Counted from the first letter of the stretch, positions 31,785 through 63,582 are shown. The stretch: DNA of 64,000 nt from Escherichia phage vB_EcoM_REC (OM386667.1), one strand, 5' to 3'. The notes: a model not told the origin generated them from the sequence alone. Numbers and translations are program-made.

Positions 31785-33809
31785 ATGAATTTAACAAGAC
31801 CTAATAGTGCGATAGCCGATCTAGTAGAAGCTACTTATCGAAAACGTCGCAGTTTTGAGGCAGGTTTTACATTACGTAATTCCCGTGAAGTTTTGCTGTT
31901 AGCGGCAGAAGGGAATTATTACCAATGGAAAGGAACTTTTCCTAAAGTAGTTCCAGCAAACTCTACGCCAGCCACCACAGGTGGTATTTCTTCCCTTGCA
32001 TGGCAAAGTGTTGGGACCGCTGATGATATAGCAATTATCAATGCCAAGTTTACGGCAATGCAGCAACAGATTGATGATCTGTCGGAAACAATACCTGAAG
32101 CTGGTAAATCGGCTTATCAGATCGCACTTGATAATGGTTTTGTTGGAACAGAAGCACAATGGCTTGCTTCTTTGAAAGGGGATACTGGTGCTCAACTTAA
32201 TATTAAAGGATCATTAGCAAGCACTAGTGAACTACCATCTACAGGTAACGTAGCAGGTGATGGTTATATTGTAGGAGATGTAATCTACGCTTGGGATGGG
32301 GCTGTTTGGAAACTTATCTCTTCTCTTGGGCCAGAAGGGAAATCAGCTTACGAGGTATGGTTAGCAGATGGTAATACAGGATCTGTTTATGACTTTCTTG
32401 CCTCTATAAAAGGTGATAAAGGAGACGTTGGTCCTACAGGTCCACAGGGTGCACCTGGTGTCAACGCTAATGGTTTTGATTACCGTGGAGATTTGCCTTC
32501 TACAAGTAACTTACCACAACCTAACTCTGAAAACGTAAGCCAAGCTTATTCTATTAATGGTAATCTTTATGTCTCTAATGGGACAGCTTGGGTCAACATG
32601 GGTAATATTGTTGGTCCTCAAGGTCCACAAGGTGAGGCAGGTAAAGACGGTCTAGATGGAACAGATGGAGACGAAGGGAAATCTGCATATCAAAGTTGGC
32701 TGGATGCTGGTAATGAAGGGACAGAAGTAGATTTTATTGCCTCACTTAAAGGTCCAAAAGGAGACAAGGGTGATCAAGGAGAGCGAGGTCCACAAGGTGA
32801 ACTAGGTCCACAAGGATCAGTGGGTGCAACAGGATCAGGTTTAGAGATTATCGGGGTTCTGAACAGCGAAGCTGAACTTCCTCCTACTGGAGAAGTAGGT
32901 GATGCATATAAAATTAATAATGATTTGTATGTTTGGGTTCAAGATGCTACAGAATGGATGAATGTAGGCAGTCTTGGAGGAACATCAATTACAGCTAAAG
33001 GTCATGTTCCGAACAGTGAAGCTCTCCCTGTTTATAATAACTACGGTGATGCCTATTTAACTGAAGACACTAGTAATCTTTACATCTATACCTACGATCA
33101 AGACACCAATTCCGCATCTTTTGTTGACATGGGAAGTATTAAAGGCGACAAAGGTGAAAAAGGGGATAAAGGAGATAAGGGTGATCCTGGAACAAACGGA
33201 ACCAACGGTACTGATGGGACCAACGGTAAGGACGGCGCACAGTGGTTTGTAGCAACAACTAATCCAGTCACAGGAGACGGTGTTATCAATGATTACGCCT
33301 TCAATACTACCACTGGAGCAGTATTTAAGAAAACAGATTCTTCTACGTGGACACTTATAGGAACTCTTCCTAGTATACCAGAAGCCCCTCAAGACGGCTT
33401 GACGTATGGTCGTTCTGATGGAAACTGGATCGAAATATCAGGATCAGATCCTACGGAAGCTATAACACCAACTAGAGTTACAGCAGGTTTCATGGAACTT
33501 GAAACAACTACTGCCAACTCTGGAGCATCTTGGACTCCTTCTGGAACTTCCAATATGTATGTTGTTACAGTAACTGACGCTCTGACAGTTGGAGCATGGC
33601 CTGGTGTCACTGGCTCTACAAAACCTAAAGCGTTTTCAGCAATGATTTATTTGATTCAAGATACAACGGGACACACGGTTACACTAGATGCGTCTTATGG
33701 AGCACTAAATGATACAGAAATAGCAACTACTGCTAACGCAGTAACAATTTTGCAATTAACGTATCCTGGTGTGGGTGATATCGTGGACATGGTTGTTGTA
33801 ACACGATAA
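31785..33809 (+). CDS. tail fiber with collagen-like Gly-X-Y repeats
   Basis: 674 aa; GPTGPQGAPG, GPQGPQGEAGKDGLDGTDGDEG, KGDKGEKGDKGDKGDPGTNGTNGTDGTNGKDG; three copies of GKSAYxxWLxxG...FxASLKG module. Confidence 0.65.
   Translation: MNLTRPNSAIADLVEATYRKRRSFEAGFTLRNSREVLLLAAEGNYYQWKGTFPKVVPANSTPATTGGISSLAWQSVGTADDIAIINAKFTAMQQQIDDLSETIPEAGKSAYQIALDNGFVGTEAQWLASLKGDTGAQLNIKGSLASTSELPSTGNVAGDGYIVGDVIYAWDGAVWKLISSLGPEGKSAYEVWLADGNTGSVYDFLASIKGDKGDVGPTGPQGAPGVNANGFDYRGDLPSTSNLPQPNSENVSQAYSINGNLYVSNGTAWVNMGNIVGPQGPQGEAGKDGLDGTDGDEGKSAYQSWLDAGNEGTEVDFIASLKGPKGDKGDQGERGPQGELGPQGSVGATGSGLEIIGVLNSEAELPPTGEVGDAYKINNDLYVWVQDATEWMNVGSLGGTSITAKGHVPNSEALPVYNNYGDAYLTEDTSNLYIYTYDQDTNSASFVDMGSIKGDKGEKGDKGDKGDPGTNGTNGTDGTNGKDGAQWFVATTNPVTGDGVINDYAFNTTTGAVFKKTDSSTWTLIGTLPSIPEAPQDGLTYGRSDGNWIEISGSDPTEAITPTRVTAGFMELETTTANSGASWTPSGTSNMYVVTVTDALTVGAWPGVTGSTKPKAFSAMIYLIQDTTGHTVTLDASYGALNDTEIATTANAVTILQLTYPGVGDIVDMVVVTR
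32100..33240 (+). repeat. collagen-like triplet repeats interleaved with three KSAY...ASLKG modules (approximate bounds)
   Basis: Read directly from translation of 31785-33809. Confidence 0.6.
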
Positions 33810-37921: not shown

Positions 37922-38515
37922 TTACCAAGGAATATCTTCTTCTTCCAATTTGGTATCTACTTGAGGTGGACGTGGAACCTTAACCTCTTTAACAAAACGA
38001 AGATATGGAAAACGTGTAGCGATTTTAATAACATGTTTGGCATCTTCTCTAACATCTTTGTGCAAGAAGCAGATCCCTGTTTCCAAAGTTGTTTCAAAAT
38101 CTTTAGAGTAATAACAATCCTTTCCATCAAATGCAGCCTGGCAGATGGACAGATCAAACTCATTCAGAAAGGTTGTCATTACATTTGGGTCCATAATCAT
38201 AAGGTTGCAAAGCTGACCGTCACGTTCAAATTCAAAAACGTGTTTAAGACCAGTAACACCCTCGTAGTTATCAGAAGCCTCTTTGTTTCCTAGCTTACGA
38301 ACATTAGTTCCCATTAAAGCAGATGCAATTAGTTCTTGTATTTGCTCTTCTGATCGATGTGCAGGAAGTGACGTATAGAAATCCAGATCACGTCCAGCAA
38401 TATCAAGAATACGCCAATCACGAACAGCACCGCCAGCCAAGACAGAATTAGGATCAGCGATCTTTAAGACAGTAAGAATTTCTTTGGCAATGTTGATTTG
38501 TTTTGATTTAGTCAT
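37922..38515 (-). CDS. nucleotidyltransferase-fold protein (GGAVRD motif) with SSB-like acidic C-terminus
   Basis: 197 aa; LAGGAVRDW...DLD resembles the Pol-beta/CCA-adding nucleotidyltransferase head motif; ends ...LEEEDIPW. Confidence 0.4.
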   Translation of the reverse strand: MTKSKQINIAKEILTVLKIADPNSVLAGGAVRDWRILDIAGRDLDFYTSLPAHRSEEQIQELIASALMGTNVRKLGNKEASDNYEGVTGLKHVFEFERDGQLCNLMIMDPNVMTTFLNEFDLSICQAAFDGKDCYYSKDFETTLETGICFLHKDVREDAKHVIKIATRFPYLRFVKEVKVPRPPQVDTKLEEEDIPW

Positions 38516-39144: not shown

Positions 39145-42100
39145 TCAATGACAGGATGCCCAGGAATTACCCACGTCATATCCGGCAGTAAGCTGAACGT
39201 TAAGATTGTAAAATTCTCCAGCCTTAGTAACAGCTAAAGCAGCAAGTTCACCTGCCCGACTATAAGCTGTAAACCATCCACCTTTGGGAGATTCATGAAT
39301 GTTAGCCCAAATTTGCCCTGTCTCTTTTTCCTTATTATGCTTCCATTCTTCAACTTTAGCAAGGCATTCTTTATCAATTTTCTTTTGTTCTTCAGGATCG
39401 TCTACTTTCTTCCAACCTAATGATTCAGGTGAAAACCATTTGAATTCTACAAGGTTACGAGAAACTTCAAGCTGGGCTTCATCGTGGTATGCAATCATTT
39501 GTTGCACGAAGTCTTTATTCTTCCAGTCATCTTTAAAGAAGTCAACACTTAGTCCTTCTTCTTCGATCATATCGTCATAAATAACCATTGCACGTTTAGC
39601 ACAGATAACCCCACCACTTTGGAACAGAGAGTTAAGAATCGCGTGAGCAGAACGAGTAGGAACCTTACGACCGTCAATACCCAAAACATACTGTTTACCA
39701 GTCTTAACCCAGAAATCGTTTAAACGTTCTTTAAGACGCGCCAGTGGGAATGCAGCTTCCCAGAAAGCATCGAACACCAGTTGCCCTGTAAACTTATCGC
39801 TACCAATTGTTTTAGCAACCTTGTCGGCTTGTGCACCATAGGTAATACCATACTTAACAGATTTAGCAGGACTACGTTCAAATTTACGTCCAATAGTTTC
39901 AGTGATACGTTTTGCCATCATGGTATGAACATCGTTAGGCTTCTCTAACAAGAGAGCGTTACAGTATTCATGAGGCTCCGGTTCGTAGCGCCAACAGTTT
40001 CCTGTGATGGTAATGCAGTCTTTCTGACGCATGACCCACGTACCAAGTTCTGTTTGTGGACACCAAACATCCTCTACACCCCACTCTTCAATAGTCAAAC
40101 TTTGAACAGGAATGTGAGAGCGGTTAGCCAATGTTACCACTTTTACTTTCTGCTCTTTTGTATTGAAAGCTACAGAGATATTGCCTCCATGCACCAGGTA
40201 CGAGGCAGTTAAAGCTGCTTCAAAAAGTTCACCTGGGTTCTGCGCCCAACGCCAAACAGGTTTTTGTTTATGTTCATGCCAGTAACCATCTGCAATCAAG
40301 AAACCTTCCAAGAAAGCTACACGCTCGGCATGAGACATATTAACTACACGCTCTACCCACGGAACATCCCATTTACCTTGTTGAACAGAAGTTAAACTAT
40401 TTACCTGATCTTGTTCCATGTTAAATGGAGCATTACAAATAATATTATCTCCTGTGCAAAGCTCGGCAGTTGTTCTGACTTTAGGCACATAAGTATTCCC
40501 TTTACTACGGGTATTAACATACCAACGGTGATCTGCTGTTGCACGGTAAGTGTGTGATTTCCCTTTAATCTCAAACGTCTTACTATTTTTATAGAAGACC
40601 TTACCTTTTACTTTAGTCCATTCTTTCAGACCTGTTTCAGCATTGTACCCTAAAATCTCATCCCCTTCCTTCAGGTCGTGATATCCTACCCAACCTTTAC
40701 GAGTCAAAGCTTGAGCATCCATCGGCACACAGTAATGTGATTCAATTTTTGCTTCCAAAGAGTCGAAGTCGTAGCCGATCTGGAAGTATTTAGGAACCTC
40801 TACACCAAACAAGTTACGCATCTCCCATCCAAACAAAGATGTGACACGAGGAATATTAGCTACAGATCTATGTTTCATACGAGAGGTTGCAGCATCACAT
40901 GTAGCGGCTGGTGTAGGAATACGCCCATCCGCCCTTACTGCGGCTAAGAAACCTTTATCGTATTCTTGATCTTCTTCATCTTCTTCCCAATCAGCACCGC
41001 CACCTAAAATAGAGTTCCTACGATGCTTATACGTTAAGTATTCTACAATCTGTGTAGCATAAGGAAATTTCTCACCCAAAGCTTGCAGGTTAGGACAAAT
41101 TTCTTTTTCCTGACCTTTGGTAAAACATGGGTTAGTCAATACTTTAAGACCGCGACCTTTACCTTTTGCTATACGCTCTTGAATCTTCCTTTCCAAAGTT
41201 TCCGGTGTGCACTCCAGATGATCACAACGATCCTGACAAAAATTAGAAGATAGAGTTTGCTCAACGTAAGCTCTAATACCTTTCTGAAGTTCTTCCTCGC
41301 TCTTTTTAATTTTGGTGCCAGATTTAAGCGTCAAGTCTTTATCTTTATATTCAGACGGTACCCAACCTAATCCTACGAGCCAGTTTTTAATATGGGTTGT
41401 ATCGTTCAATGTTGCAGGGATGTTAGGATCACATAGAGGCTCATCTGCTGCAACTGGCAGTTTCCACTCTTTCCCCCACATAACTAACCACCAATCGCCA
41501 TCCCTCTCTTCCAAATGACCATCATGTTTCTTAGCAAAATTGATCATATGGTTAGTTGGCTCTAAGTTCTTTTTAATTTGCAACTTAGGTGGAATAAAAG
41601 CCTTAAGATAACCTTTTGTTGCTGGTTTAGGTGGCAAAATAGGCTCAACGAGTAAACGAAGACGCTCCATTTCTGCATCCAAAAAAGCAAGGTTCTCTTC
41701 TGCTTGCTTCATGTTAAAAGCAAACCCACGGTGTTCCTGGCGTGTAATAATGTCTGCTACACGTTGTTCAAGTTCAAATGGACCTTCCCATTTATCATAA
41801 TCGCCCCATTCTTCCATAAGGTAATTATATACGCTCGTATTGGCTTTGTTGTCATAGATACAGTAATAAAGCATATCCGCAGCAAAAGTCTTAAATCGAT
41901 CTTCTTCTGGAATCTCTTTACGGAAATCTATTTTTACATCACCACCTGCTTTTCGAGAAAGTGCTGCCAAGCTATGTCCTGATTTGCCCTCAATCTTTCG
42001 ATCTGGGTTTAACACTTTACTCAAAATCAAGGAGTCAATAAGTTTTACCTTATTTTTGCCCCACGTATTATATTTAACACTGTAATCTAATCCATAAAAC

Positions 42101-42477
42101 AGTTTTGTAGCCAACCAGTCGTAGTTGATACCGTTGTGAGCCACAGCCATTTCAACCAGATATTCAGGCTTGTCTTTAAAATAACCTTCATGATTAATAA
42201 AATCTGGGAAATCTTTTAGTTGAAAATGTGTGTAATCTTGCGCCACATACTCTTTAAGAACATATGTGTATTTACCATCTGACTCTTCATAAGGACGCCC
42301 ATCAAAGATGTATTTAGGGCCATCGTGGAAAGCTACTATTTCTCCTGTTTCATGGTTCTCTAAGACAATACAGTGCATTTGAAATGTGTCTTTGAGACGA
42401 TAAGGACTAGCTAAATAATCAATAGTGTCATTATTCAACAATCCGTTTGCTTCAATATCCCATGTAAACTTACTCAC
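39145..42477 (-). CDS. family-A DNA polymerase with 3'-5' exonuclease domain, interrupted by an intein-like element
   Basis: 1110 aa; exonuclease motif DIEANGL; motif A-like YDFDSLEAKIESHY; motif B-like KSVKYGITYGAQ; motif C-like HDEAQLEV; about 245 aa insertion after motif A. Confidence 0.85.
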   Translation of the reverse strand: MSKFTWDIEANGLLNNDTIDYLASPYRLKDTFQMHCIVLENHETGEIVAFHDGPKYIFDGRPYEESDGKYTYVLKEYVAQDYTHFQLKDFPDFINHEGYFKDKPEYLVEMAVAHNGINYDWLATKLFYGLDYSVKYNTWGKNKVKLIDSLILSKVLNPDRKIEGKSGHSLAALSRKAGGDVKIDFRKEIPEEDRFKTFAADMLYYCIYDNKANTSVYNYLMEEWGDYDKWEGPFELEQRVADIITRQEHRGFAFNMKQAEENLAFLDAEMERLRLLVEPILPPKPATKGYLKAFIPPKLQIKKNLEPTNHMINFAKKHDGHLEERDGDWWLVMWGKEWKLPVAADEPLCDPNIPATLNDTTHIKNWLVGLGWVPSEYKDKDLTLKSGTKIKKSEEELQKGIRAYVEQTLSSNFCQDRCDHLECTPETLERKIQERIAKGKGRGLKVLTNPCFTKGQEKEICPNLQALGEKFPYATQIVEYLTYKHRRNSILGGGADWEEDEEDQEYDKGFLAAVRADGRIPTPAATCDAATSRMKHRSVANIPRVTSLFGWEMRNLFGVEVPKYFQIGYDFDSLEAKIESHYCVPMDAQALTRKGWVGYHDLKEGDEILGYNAETGLKEWTKVKGKVFYKNSKTFEIKGKSHTYRATADHRWYVNTRSKGNTYVPKVRTTAELCTGDNIICNAPFNMEQDQVNSLTSVQQGKWDVPWVERVVNMSHAERVAFLEGFLIADGYWHEHKQKPVWRWAQNPGELFEAALTASYLVHGGNISVAFNTKEQKVKVVTLANRSHIPVQSLTIEEWGVEDVWCPQTELGTWVMRQKDCITITGNCWRYEPEPHEYCNALLLEKPNDVHTMMAKRITETIGRKFERSPAKSVKYGITYGAQADKVAKTIGSDKFTGQLVFDAFWEAAFPLARLKERLNDFWVKTGKQYVLGIDGRKVPTRSAHAILNSLFQSGGVICAKRAMVIYDDMIEEEGLSVDFFKDDWKNKDFVQQMIAYHDEAQLEVSRNLVEFKWFSPESLGWKKVDDPEEQKKIDKECLAKVEEWKHNKEKETGQIWANIHESPKGGWFTAYSRAGELAALAVTKAGEFYNLNVQLTAGYDVGNSWASCH
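39997..40731 (-). other. intein-like (Hint domain) insertion within DNA polymerase
   Basis: Starts with Cys after ESHY; TxxDH block (TADHRW); LAGLIDADG-like LEGFLIADGYW; ends ...ITITGN followed by Cys (CWRY). Confidence 0.55.
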
Positions 42478-61249: not shown

Positions 61250-61720
61250 TTAATCTGATTGCCAACCACTTGCCGTTTTGGTCCATAATCTTTGATTATC
61301 TGACCCTCTGAAAGGTTTTGTAGTTGGATTGTTTATTTCATACTTTCCGTCTACAATAATGTCAACAAGATTTTTAATATACAAAGGCACTTCCTCAAAA
61401 GTATATCCTGTATACACCATTATATCTTTGCTTGACCCATAAACGTCTCTAACCTTTTCTATAAGGTTTTTAACATTGTAAATATTCTGCGGATCTAATG
61501 GCTCTCCTCCTAAAATTGTTAAACCTTTTACAAACGGTCTTGACAAATCTTTTAAAACTTGCTCTACATTTTCGTGAGTAAACGGTTTCCCATAAGAATA
61601 AGACCAGGCTTTTTGGTTAAAACAGCCACGACAACCGTGGCTACAACCACTAACCCAGAGGGAGCACCTAACTCCCTCACCATTAATAAGATCTACAGGT
61701 TCATATCCTGCAAAATTCAA
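61250..61720 (-). CDS. nrdG: anaerobic ribonucleotide reductase activating protein (radical SAM)
   Basis: 156 aa; cluster CSHGCRGC; immediately downstream of nrdD with overlapping stop/start. Confidence 0.8.
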   Translation of the reverse strand: MNFAGYEPVDLINGEGVRCSLWVSGCSHGCRGCFNQKAWSYSYGKPFTHENVEQVLKDLSRPFVKGLTILGGEPLDPQNIYNVKNLIEKVRDVYGSSKDIMVYTGYTFEEVPLYIKNLVDIIVDGKYEINNPTTKPFRGSDNQRLWTKTASGWQSD

Positions 61721-63582
61721 AGATGTTTCTCCCTTTGCAAAACTTCCTGCATTTTACCTTTGTTGTAAGGCCGTGAATTAGGGGCAGAAAGATACCCTGA
61801 TACACGTCTAACTACAGAAATAGTTTCTTCTTCATGGTTGCCACAATCAGGACACTCAAACCCTTTAGCCGTTGCCTTAAATTCTCCATGAAAACCACAC
61901 TTAAAGCATTGATCCACGGGCTGATTAATACCAAAATAGTGAATATGTTCATAAGCGTAGTCTACTAAAGTCTCCAAAGCTTCTAAGTTATTCTTTAAGT
62001 TTGGTGTTTCGACATAACTTATGTTACCACCATTACTAATCTGTGCAAAACCTGCTTCATAATCCCATTTTTCAAAAGGATTTGTTACCAACCATACAGG
62101 TTGATGAAAAGAGTTAGTAAGATAGTCTCTTTCTACCAAACTTGGGTATTTTTCATTTAAAGCTGTTGCAAACTTATAGCACAAAGATTCTGCTGGAGTT
62201 CCATAGAGACTAAACGCCAGCTTAGATCGTTCTTTAAACACAGCACACACATCTTTCATATGTTGCAGAATGCTTTTACCAAGTTCCTTTTTATCTTTTT
62301 CTTCTGGATAAAGGATTTCCAAAGCTTCGGCAAGACCTACATAACCAATACTAATAGAAGCATAACCACCTTCAAACAAAACACCAATTTCATCATTGGC
62401 ATTTAAACGCGCTAAAGCCCCTTCCATGAAAAGAATAGGGTTTTCAGATGCTTTGGTATGTCTGATACGGTTTACACGTAGCATGTGAGCATCGTAGGCT
62501 ATCTCCATATGTTTATTAAGAAGATCGGTGAAAGATTCTCCTTTACTTCTCGCTTCCGCAGCGATCAGAGGTAAGTTGATAGAAACTACTCCAAGGTTGA
62601 ATCGTCCATCGTATTTTTCTCCTTGTTCGGTGGCATAGTACGACAAAAAGGAACGACAACCCATACTCGTAACAGTACCATCTGCTGATCCCGTAACTTC
62701 TTTGTTCAAAGGAACAGAAATAAAATCTGGATAAATACGATCAGCACAACATGCCAAAGCTTGTTGCTTAAGGTCATAGTTAGGATCACTAGGTTTCATG
62801 TTAACACCTTCTTGTAAAAAGAAAATAACTTTAGGGAATACAGGCGTTACATGATCTTTGCCTAGACCGTTACTATGCACTTTAAGATAGTTAGCTGTAA
62901 TCATTCTGCCAAAAACAGAGGTATCCAGACCCATACTGATTGTAATAAAAGGAGATTGTCCATTAACACTCATTAAAGTATTAACCTGATACAAGAGAGT
63001 TTGCATAGCATCGTATACATCTTGTTCGGTCATTTCTAGGGCTTCTTTCCTTGCATAACAACCGTAGCGACGTTTGGTTATCTCCATGTTTTTAAGGAAA
63101 CTAGCTTCAACATAAGGACTAAGACCTTTATCAATGTGCGCACACGTGAAACTAGCTTCAACATAAGGACTAAGACCTTTATCAATGTGCGCACACGTCT
63201 GACCTCCATACTGACTGGAGGCAACAGCTTGGATAATTTGAGTTAGCACTGTGGTAGCTACCCCAATAGATTTTGGTTTTTCTATCTGTGCGGCTCCGAT
63301 CTTAAAACCATTCTCTAACATATCTTGATAATTAACAAGACAACAGTTTGTAAGAGGAGAGAGTAGATAATCCAAGTCGTGAATATGTCCAAAACCTTCT
63401 GTATGCCACTCTGACAAGTTTTTTGGCAGTATCTGTGTCATTGCCATATGTTTGCTTAAAATCCCCGCCAAGAGATCCCTATGCGTGTTAACGAGGTGGG
63501 AAGGTTTGTTTGCATTCTCTCTAGTGTATGTTTCTGAAGTGCGATCTAAAAAAGAAAAAACATCTTGGTACAAATCTTTCAT
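61717..63582 (-). CDS. nrdD: anaerobic ribonucleoside-triphosphate reductase (class III)
   Basis: 621 aa; C-terminal zinc ribbon CFKCGFHGEF...CPDCGNHEE and glycyl-radical-like RVSGYL; contains an in-frame 17-aa tandem duplication. Confidence 0.85.
   Translation of the reverse strand: MKDLYQDVFSFLDRTSETYTRENANKPSHLVNTHRDLLAGILSKHMAMTQILPKNLSEWHTEGFGHIHDLDYLLSPLTNCCLVNYQDMLENGFKIGAAQIEKPKSIGVATTVLTQIIQAVASSQYGGQTCAHIDKGLSPYVEASFTCAHIDKGLSPYVEASFLKNMEITKRRYGCYARKEALEMTEQDVYDAMQTLLYQVNTLMSVNGQSPFITISMGLDTSVFGRMITANYLKVHSNGLGKDHVTPVFPKVIFFLQEGVNMKPSDPNYDLKQQALACCADRIYPDFISVPLNKEVTGSADGTVTSMGCRSFLSYYATEQGEKYDGRFNLGVVSINLPLIAAEARSKGESFTDLLNKHMEIAYDAHMLRVNRIRHTKASENPILFMEGALARLNANDEIGVLFEGGYASISIGYVGLAEALEILYPEEKDKKELGKSILQHMKDVCAVFKERSKLAFSLYGTPAESLCYKFATALNEKYPSLVERDYLTNSFHQPVWLVTNPFEKWDYEAGFAQISNGGNISYVETPNLKNNLEALETLVDYAYEHIHYFGINQPVDQCFKCGFHGEFKATAKGFECPDCGNHEEETISVVRRVSGYLSAPNSRPYNKGKMQEVLQREKHL
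63097..63198. repeat. perfect 51-bp direct tandem duplication inside nrdD
   Basis: 63097-63147 and 63148-63198 are identical; encodes the duplicated peptide HIDKGLSPYVEASF. Confidence 0.9.

Follow-up and report, generated by a model that had tools for sequence, protein, structure and literature searches.

A Perfect 51-bp Tandem Repeat in nrdD of the Recombinant Phage vB_EcoM_REC Is Probably an Untrimmed Contig-End Overlap

Introduction

Does a perfect, in-frame duplication inside a conserved phage enzyme record a very recent mutation, or does it record the handling of an assembled contig? The question is raised by Escherichia phage vB_EcoM_REC (OM386667, 156,300 bp), a laboratory recombinant of ESCO5 and ESCO37 that was picked as a plaque after co-infection of strain Cp6salp3 and belongs to an eight-phage cocktail that is a candidate therapy for avian colibacillosis (PMC10269720). 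Its MiSeq reads (2 x 250) were assembled with SPAdes 3.5.1 (k not stated) as one contig, and Prokka supplied the annotation; the paper says nothing of nrdD or of a duplication, and its data-availability statement names GenBank accessions only (PMC10269720). The laboratory ran SPAdes through Galaxy.

The stretch of REC DNA analysed here, 64,000 nucleotides long and referred to below as the window, is that of a phAPEC8-like Phapecoctavirus. Within its gene for the class III anaerobic ribonucleotide reductase lie two identical segments of 51 bp, directly adjoining. We consider it likely that this repeat is an end overlap of the SPAdes contig, left untrimmed in OM386667 when the contig was rotated, rather than a mutation of the phage, which would itself be single-copy at the site. 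The argument draws on the parents and relatives of REC, on a truncated gene in the deposited annotation, on the numbering of locus tags and protein accessions, and on sister records from the same study.

The Repeat and the Gene That Contains It

Direct reading of the sequence places the two copies at 63097-63147 and 63148-63198, and TRF returns for 63097-63198 a period of 51, 2.0 copies, 100% matches, no indels, and a score of 204. This is the sole perfect tandem duplication with a period of 25-400 across the whole window, and it is therefore not a product of chance. The bases at its edges (g at 63096 against t at 63147; c at 63199 against g at 63148) do not prolong the repeat: the match run is exactly 51, so that there are exactly two copies and, on comparison of these edge bases, no microhomology at the borders. 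Translated in frame, the unit reads TCAHIDKGLSPYVEASF, which forms residues 129-145 and again 146-162 of an open reading frame (ORF) of 621 amino acids. The junction between the copies (X-X, with X standing for the unit) reads GCGCACACGT followed by GAAACTAGCT or, with the sequence continuing on both sides, ATGTGCGCACACGT followed by GAAACTAGCTTCAAC. The features concerned are as follows.

63097-63147, no strand assigned: copy 1 of the 51-bp unit, with which, in window orientation, the original SPAdes contig would have ended.
63148-63198, no strand assigned: copy 2, identical to copy 1, with which that contig would have begun.
61717-63582, minus strand: nrdD, class III anaerobic ribonucleotide reductase, 621 amino acids as read in the window.
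61250-61720, minus strand: nrdG, radical-SAM activase (Fer4_12, 144.5 bits; Radical_SAM, 38 bits).

By its sequence, the gene that hosts the repeat is a class III ribonucleotide reductase, NrdD, as its domains, active-site residues, and NrdG neighbour all indicate. The 621-residue ORF matches the Pfam families NRDD (PF13597, 543.6 bits) and Gly_radical (PF01228, 96.3 bits), and it matches T4 NrdD in the PDB with E=1e-162. In the NrdD alignment the glycyl-radical RVxGY motif (R592, R593, G596, and Y597 in 621-residue numbering) is invariant, as are C80, C309, N329, and the four-cysteine zinc ribbon (C559, C562, C577, and C580); C80, C309, and N329 align to T4 C79, C290, and N311. The nrdG gene lies directly downstream, overlapping the nrdD stop codon, and its exact protein is widely on record. 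The nrdD-nrdG operon is thus intact apart from the repeat. A preliminary description of the locus had reported two identical adjoining 51-bp copies forming a perfect, in-frame, 17-residue repeat within nrdD, and the sequence read, the TRF result, the translation, and the Pfam and T4 matches bear this out in full.

The closest structural counterpart is T4 NrdD (PDB 1H78, 1H79, 1H7A, 1H7B, and 1HK8). A one-copy version of the REC protein aligns with it end to end and without gaps in the repeat region (E=1.5e-168), and the active-site cysteine, the glycyl-radical motif, and the zinc-ribbon cysteines are all conserved in the window protein. The window ORF departs from it in having 17 extra residues between the equivalents of T4 T127 and T128, which repeat T4 residues 128-144.

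An insertion of another kind is present in the nrdD of Phapecoctavirus 536P1 (OZ035728.1), where approximately 780 bp (934-1713 of the extracted locus) break the catalytic-cysteine motif TSMG/CRSF. That insert scores 39.3 bits (E=6e-8) against the group I intron model RF00028, under the gathering score of 50, and contains an ORF of up to 213 amino acids that, as judged by eye only, has the look of an HNH-type homing endonuclease. The nrdD of the window has no insert of this type.

Relatives and Parents

The preliminary description had suggested a comparison with nrdD of related phages, and the outcome is uniform: all 61 related records that match the region, parent ESCO37 among them, have a single copy. 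A 216-bp query drawn across the repeat spans 165 bp (51 bp shorter) or 162 bp in the relatives, and NrdD is 604 amino acids long (1815 bp) in all of them, versus 621 in the window, a difference of 17 residues. The X-X junction was found nowhere in the phage collection, IMG/VR, the JGI metagenomes, or the GTDB genomes; that no match in the phage collection carries it is explained by the absence of the REC record itself from that collection. The exact 621-residue protein has no match among approximately 15 billion proteins, and REC NrdD was not found in the contig index.

Repeat excepted, 40729-64000 of the window is 100.000% identical to ESCO37 (OM386659) over 23,272 bp, with no substitutions, and the two copies fall on one and the same 51-base segment of ESCO37 (subject positions 64809-64859 are used twice). 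The remainder of the window, 1-40737, is identical to ESCO5 (KX664695.3) save for one base. For ESCO5 itself, the genome size was given as 149,312 bp in the 2017 announcement and is 149,268 bp in version 3 of the record, which is 44 bp shorter after revision.

The single base by which REC differs from ESCO5 in 40.7 kb is a C-to-T change at 32817. It converts Pro345 to Ser in a tail spike ORF (31785-33809, plus strand; Tail_spike_N domain and collagen repeat), and may be either a host-adaptive mutation acquired during the selection of REC for plaques of greater size and clarity or a base at which REC corrects the ESCO5 record.

The crossover between the ESCO5 and ESCO37 portions falls within 40729-40737, inside a family-A DNA polymerase gene (39145-42477, minus strand), and coincides exactly with the border of an alignment gap of 730 bp (approximately 245 amino acids; 39999-40737). 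The insert that accounts for this gap is shared by ESCO5 and REC and missing in ESCO37. It resembles an intein in beginning with C-VPMDAQ and ending with ITGN/C, and it gives weak matches to the Pfam families Intein_splicing (E=0.009) and LAGLIDADG_3 (E=0.14). On one side of the crossover there is no co-conversion, the first ESCO5-specific base being 10 nt away, and on the other side the sequence is that of ESCO5 for more than 40 kb. Random homologous exchange has been proposed for REC (PMC10269720); the position of the crossover suggests that recombination may instead have started from a break made by a homing endonuclease.

A Truncated nrdD in the Deposited Annotation

The nrdD product in the GenBank record of REC (UPW40324.1, "anaerobic ribonucleoside-triphosphate reductase") has 456 amino acids and begins MEITKRR, which corresponds to M166 of the window ORF. 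This methionine stands three residues past the second repeat copy and is the first ATG after the repeat. The deposited annotation thus divides the gene as follows.

61717-63087, minus strand: annotated part of nrdD (UPW40324.1, 456 amino acids, from M166), which we read as the fossil of a contig edge within 63088-63248.
63088-63582, minus strand: 5' part of nrdD, residues 1-165 with both copies, which would be unannotated in the deposit.

A ribosome-binding site (AAGGA) precedes M1, and none precedes M166. The next in-frame start upstream of M166 is the GTG of V112 (63249), and M166 is the first in-frame ATG, GTG, or TTG downstream of V112. The same pipeline called the intact nrdD of ESCO37 at full length.

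Prokka runs Prodigal with closed ends (prodigal -c). Under closed-end calling, when a contig edge falls within a gene, the call begins at the earliest start codon available in the contig, and the remaining fragment, if it lacks a stop codon, goes uncalled. A 456-residue call from M166 would accordingly put the edge of the annotated contig somewhere in 63088-63248, with the repeat inside that interval, and the 5' fragment, which would run off that edge without a stop codon, would not be called.

Locus Tags and Accessions Point to the Same Join

The location of the contig edge was derived from the truncated coding sequence (CDS) together with the arithmetic of locus tags and accessions. Protein accessions in this batch of records run consecutively along each record, the anchors being ESCO25 (38014-38287), ESCO37 (ending 38972), ESCO49 (39488-39604), ESCO56 (39723-39837), and ESCO58 (starting 39838). 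The REC proteins are UPW40109-40394, 286 CDSs in all, of which the truncated NrdD, hereafter NrdD', ranks 216th in accession order and is followed by 70 others; nrdD of ESCO37 ranks 211th among 280, with 69 to follow. From this similarity of rank it follows that the REC record is in the ESCO37/phAPEC8 frame and that the repeat is internal to the deposit. A window that wrapped around the ends of an unrotated record is ruled out by the same rank of the truncated CDS. The REC coordinates given in the paper (0-11,573; 117,476-143,665; total 156,300) were irreconcilable with either frame and were left unused.

The endoN gene of REC is named REC_00244, and Table 2 of the paper lists 296 REC features (PMC10269720). 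The endoN product is UPW40272.1, 52 CDSs before NrdD' (UPW40324.1), a spacing that agrees with the parents' tables (16 steps from ESCO5_00098 to 00082, and 36 steps from ESCO37_00073 to 00037). Adding 52 to 244 gives 296, the REC feature count, and in all six sister records checked the Table 2 feature count equals the last locus tag. By this arithmetic the REC tags would ascend along the record and NrdD' would be REC_00296, the last feature; the chance that the sum is a coincidence is approximately 2 in 296. A CDS that is last by tag and 216th of 286 by position implies that the tags wrap in the interior of the record, where the old contig ends would have been joined at the repeat. We place that join between 63147 and 63148.

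Untrimmed Overlaps in Sister Records

Comparable duplications occur elsewhere in the same data set. The tags of ESCO37 (OM386659.1) run backwards along the record and wrap from 00001 to 00290 at 136,975-137,121, which shows that the contig was flipped and rotated after annotation. Exactly at this wrap, at 136,995-137,105, there is a perfect 55-bp tandem duplication that is unique to the ESCO37 record; the site measures 346 bp in every relative versus 401 bp in ESCO37, so that each relative has one copy. It is very likely that 55 bases of the ESCO37 GenBank record are spurious.

In ESCO25 (OM386656.1), which was deposited unrotated, the first 127 bp are the same as the last 127 bp, and in ESCO49 (OM386663.1) this holds for 33 bp. 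Both end repeats are assembler overlaps left in place, and they make the stated genome sizes too large. No end overlap was found in ESCO3, ESCO8, ESCO56, or ESCO58 (four of the seven sister records sampled), so that leaving such overlaps was not a general practice, a point against the artefact reading; these four are uninformative for k. The canonical SPAdes values of k are 21, 33, 55, 77, 99, and 127 (PMC8172020); the overlaps of 33, 55, and 127 bp are all among them, and the laboratory evidently used differing final k for different phages. Assembler overlaps that escaped trimming are thus frequent among these records, and once a contig is rotated they become internal "tandem duplications."

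A further oddity at a record end concerns ESCO8 (OM386653.1), where the last feature of the unrotated record is a "putative scaffold protein" gene of 531 bp (148,243-148,773) that stops 87 bp short of the record end. In ESCO37, which is of another genus than ESCO8, the scaffold gene measures 1116 bp, and the ESCO8 gene may be edge-truncated.

Proposed Origin of the REC Repeat

We propose the following sequence of events. The genome would have been assembled as a cycle and emitted as a linear contig with the same 51 bp of nrdD at both ends. Prokka, with closed ends, would have called just the 3' fragment of nrdD, from M166, as the last feature, REC_00296. The authors would then have rotated the contig into the phAPEC8/ESCO37 frame, joining the old ends and keeping the overlap, and this untrimmed join would have turned the L-X-R of the phage into L-X-X-R.

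The REC repeat has the marks of an untrimmed de Bruijn end overlap of a circular or circularly permuted genome: it is perfect, it has two copies and no microhomology, it is found in one record only, and it sits at a probable contig join. Exactly 2.0 perfect copies without microhomology are what a pasted overlap is expected to give. From the same study, ESCO37 (55 bp, internal), ESCO25 (127 bp), and ESCO49 (33 bp) supply the parallels. Peculiar to REC is that the overlap fell inside a conserved gene, where it mimics an in-frame mutation and left a truncated CDS. REC also departs from the pattern in length, as 51 is not among the canonical SPAdes values of k, though it is odd and hence a legal k. 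The length remains a loose end, which a custom k list ending in 51, a 55-bp overlap that lost four bases at one end, a mixed lysate of the kind considered below, or some other cause would tie up.

The preliminary description had left the choice open between a recent event, an assembly artefact, and a mutation that alters function. The truncated CDS, the last-tag arithmetic, and the overlaps in sister records favour the artefact.

Could the Duplication Be Real?

That the duplication is real in part or all of the REC population seems to us rather unlikely. On such a reading the co-infection with ESCO5 and ESCO37 would have given rise to it with no microhomology involved, perhaps as a side effect of recombination-dependent replication, and it would have been tolerated in aerated culture. 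Its coexistence with the one-copy allele would then be what broke the assembly graph at this site and set the overlap at 51 bp. The REC repeat does share with spontaneous tandem duplications, which arise by replication slippage or unequal recombination, a head-to-tail and in-frame arrangement and an apparently recent origin (the copies are identical). It differs from them in having no short direct repeat at its borders and in coinciding with a probable contig join and a truncated annotation. Slipped-strand or microhomology-mediated duplication would be expected to leave microhomology at the borders, carrying the repeat past 2.0 copies; here the borders have none, and the match run stops at 51.

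The best surviving form of this reading, to which we give a small probability, is that the REC lysate mixes one-copy and two-copy genomes. With k greater than 51, the two alleles would form a bubble in the graph, the main contig would end in L+X and begin with X+R, and the untrimmed join of its ends would recreate the two-copy allele. By this graph reasoning, a mixture would account both for a break exactly at the site and for an overlap of 51 bp, a non-default k; the branch bases that it predicts (63096 g and 63147 t; 63199 c and 63148 g) are the exact edges of the repeat. Residual parental single-nucleotide variants do not account for the break: outside the unit, the closest sites at which ESCO5 and ESCO37 differ are 63013 and 63235, away from the repeat edges. 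NrdD is dispensable in aerated culture, as established for the T4 nrdD, and because the enzyme is needed for anaerobic dNTP synthesis alone, a damaged allele could drift under aerobic conditions. The mixture would nevertheless require a rare, microhomology-free 51-bp duplication at intermediate frequency in a plaque-purified lysate, and both alleles would have to outlast the pruning of low-coverage paths by the assembler. The two-copy allele has no direct evidence in any collection searched, and k evidently varied between the genomes of this laboratory (33, 55, and 127), so that a custom k of 51 is a simpler account of the length. A graph break caused by residual parental DNA was also considered and rejected: the repeat is not bounded by variants, and the one site inside it (63103, equivalent to 63154) carries the ESCO37 allele in both copies.

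It is very improbable that the duplication is real and fixed in REC, as a very recent in-frame event during co-infection or plaque purification to which the odd CDS is unrelated. The ORF does remain open at 621 amino acids; the rest of the ESCO37-derived block equals its parent, so a real event would have to be very recent; and the window holds another real difference from a parent, P345S at 32817. Against this, an intact 621-residue ORF with a good ribosome-binding site at M1 would not be called from M166, where there is none, by a pipeline that called ESCO37 nrdD at full length, and the sum reaching 296 would have to be that 2-in-296 coincidence. The lack of border microhomology is a further difficulty.

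The protein itself also speaks against a fixed duplication. The insertion separates the invariant YGGQ from the invariant HID..L..Y, and in an alignment of 33 homologs (52-97% identity) the 17 inserted columns hold not one residue; QYGGQ-(T/S)xxHIDxxLxxYV is contiguous in all 33, with Y125, G126, G127, Q128, D134, L137, and Y140 invariant. In an AlphaFold model of the one-copy protein (mean pLDDT 86.5), this region is predicted as a helix (106-123), the YGGQ turn, a strand (128-130), and two further helices (133-136 and 138-156), all with pLDDT of 85-98. With two copies, the model (mean pLDDT 83.9) puts the second of them in the native place, and residues 126-143, including the invariant YGGQ, are extruded and disordered with pLDDT below 50; means over blocks of ten residues fall to 42 (121-130) and 27 (131-140).

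The preliminary description had asked whether the duplicated segment lies in a loop. In the one-copy model it does not, the unit running from the strand at 128-130 through the short helix at 133-136 into the start of the long helix at 138-156. As the unit begins inside a strand, ends in mid-helix, and belongs to an invariant, ordered segment, a real duplication would probably damage NrdD rather than be neutral. Two related proposals were rejected: a tolerated 17-residue loop insertion, since the region is ordered in the model and no homolog has residues there, and a repeat of specificity loop 2, which maps to approximately residues 184-191 of the one-copy protein.

It is scarcely credible that the repeat reflects natural or adaptive variation in NrdD length, or that it is programmed, whether as a phase-variable tract or as the terminal repeat of a packaged genome: nothing more than the in-frame length speaks for this, and the repeat occurs in no relative and in none of three large public collections, falls in an invariant core segment, and has two copies only with no further ones in the window, while a terminal repeat within a conserved gene that is intact in the parent makes no sense.

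Implications

The public record of REC most likely contains 51 spurious bases and a truncated nrdD annotation of 456 amino acids versus the expected 604. New biology would follow here solely if a real polymorphic duplication were confirmed. The main value of the finding is one of data quality: leftovers of this sort look like in-frame mutations of recent date, add to genome sizes, and can lead comparative or evolutionary analyses astray. They can be screened for in the absence of reads by the combination seen at this locus, namely a perfect two-copy repeat without microhomology, a wrap in the locus tags, and a CDS whose start codon is the first ATG past the repeat.
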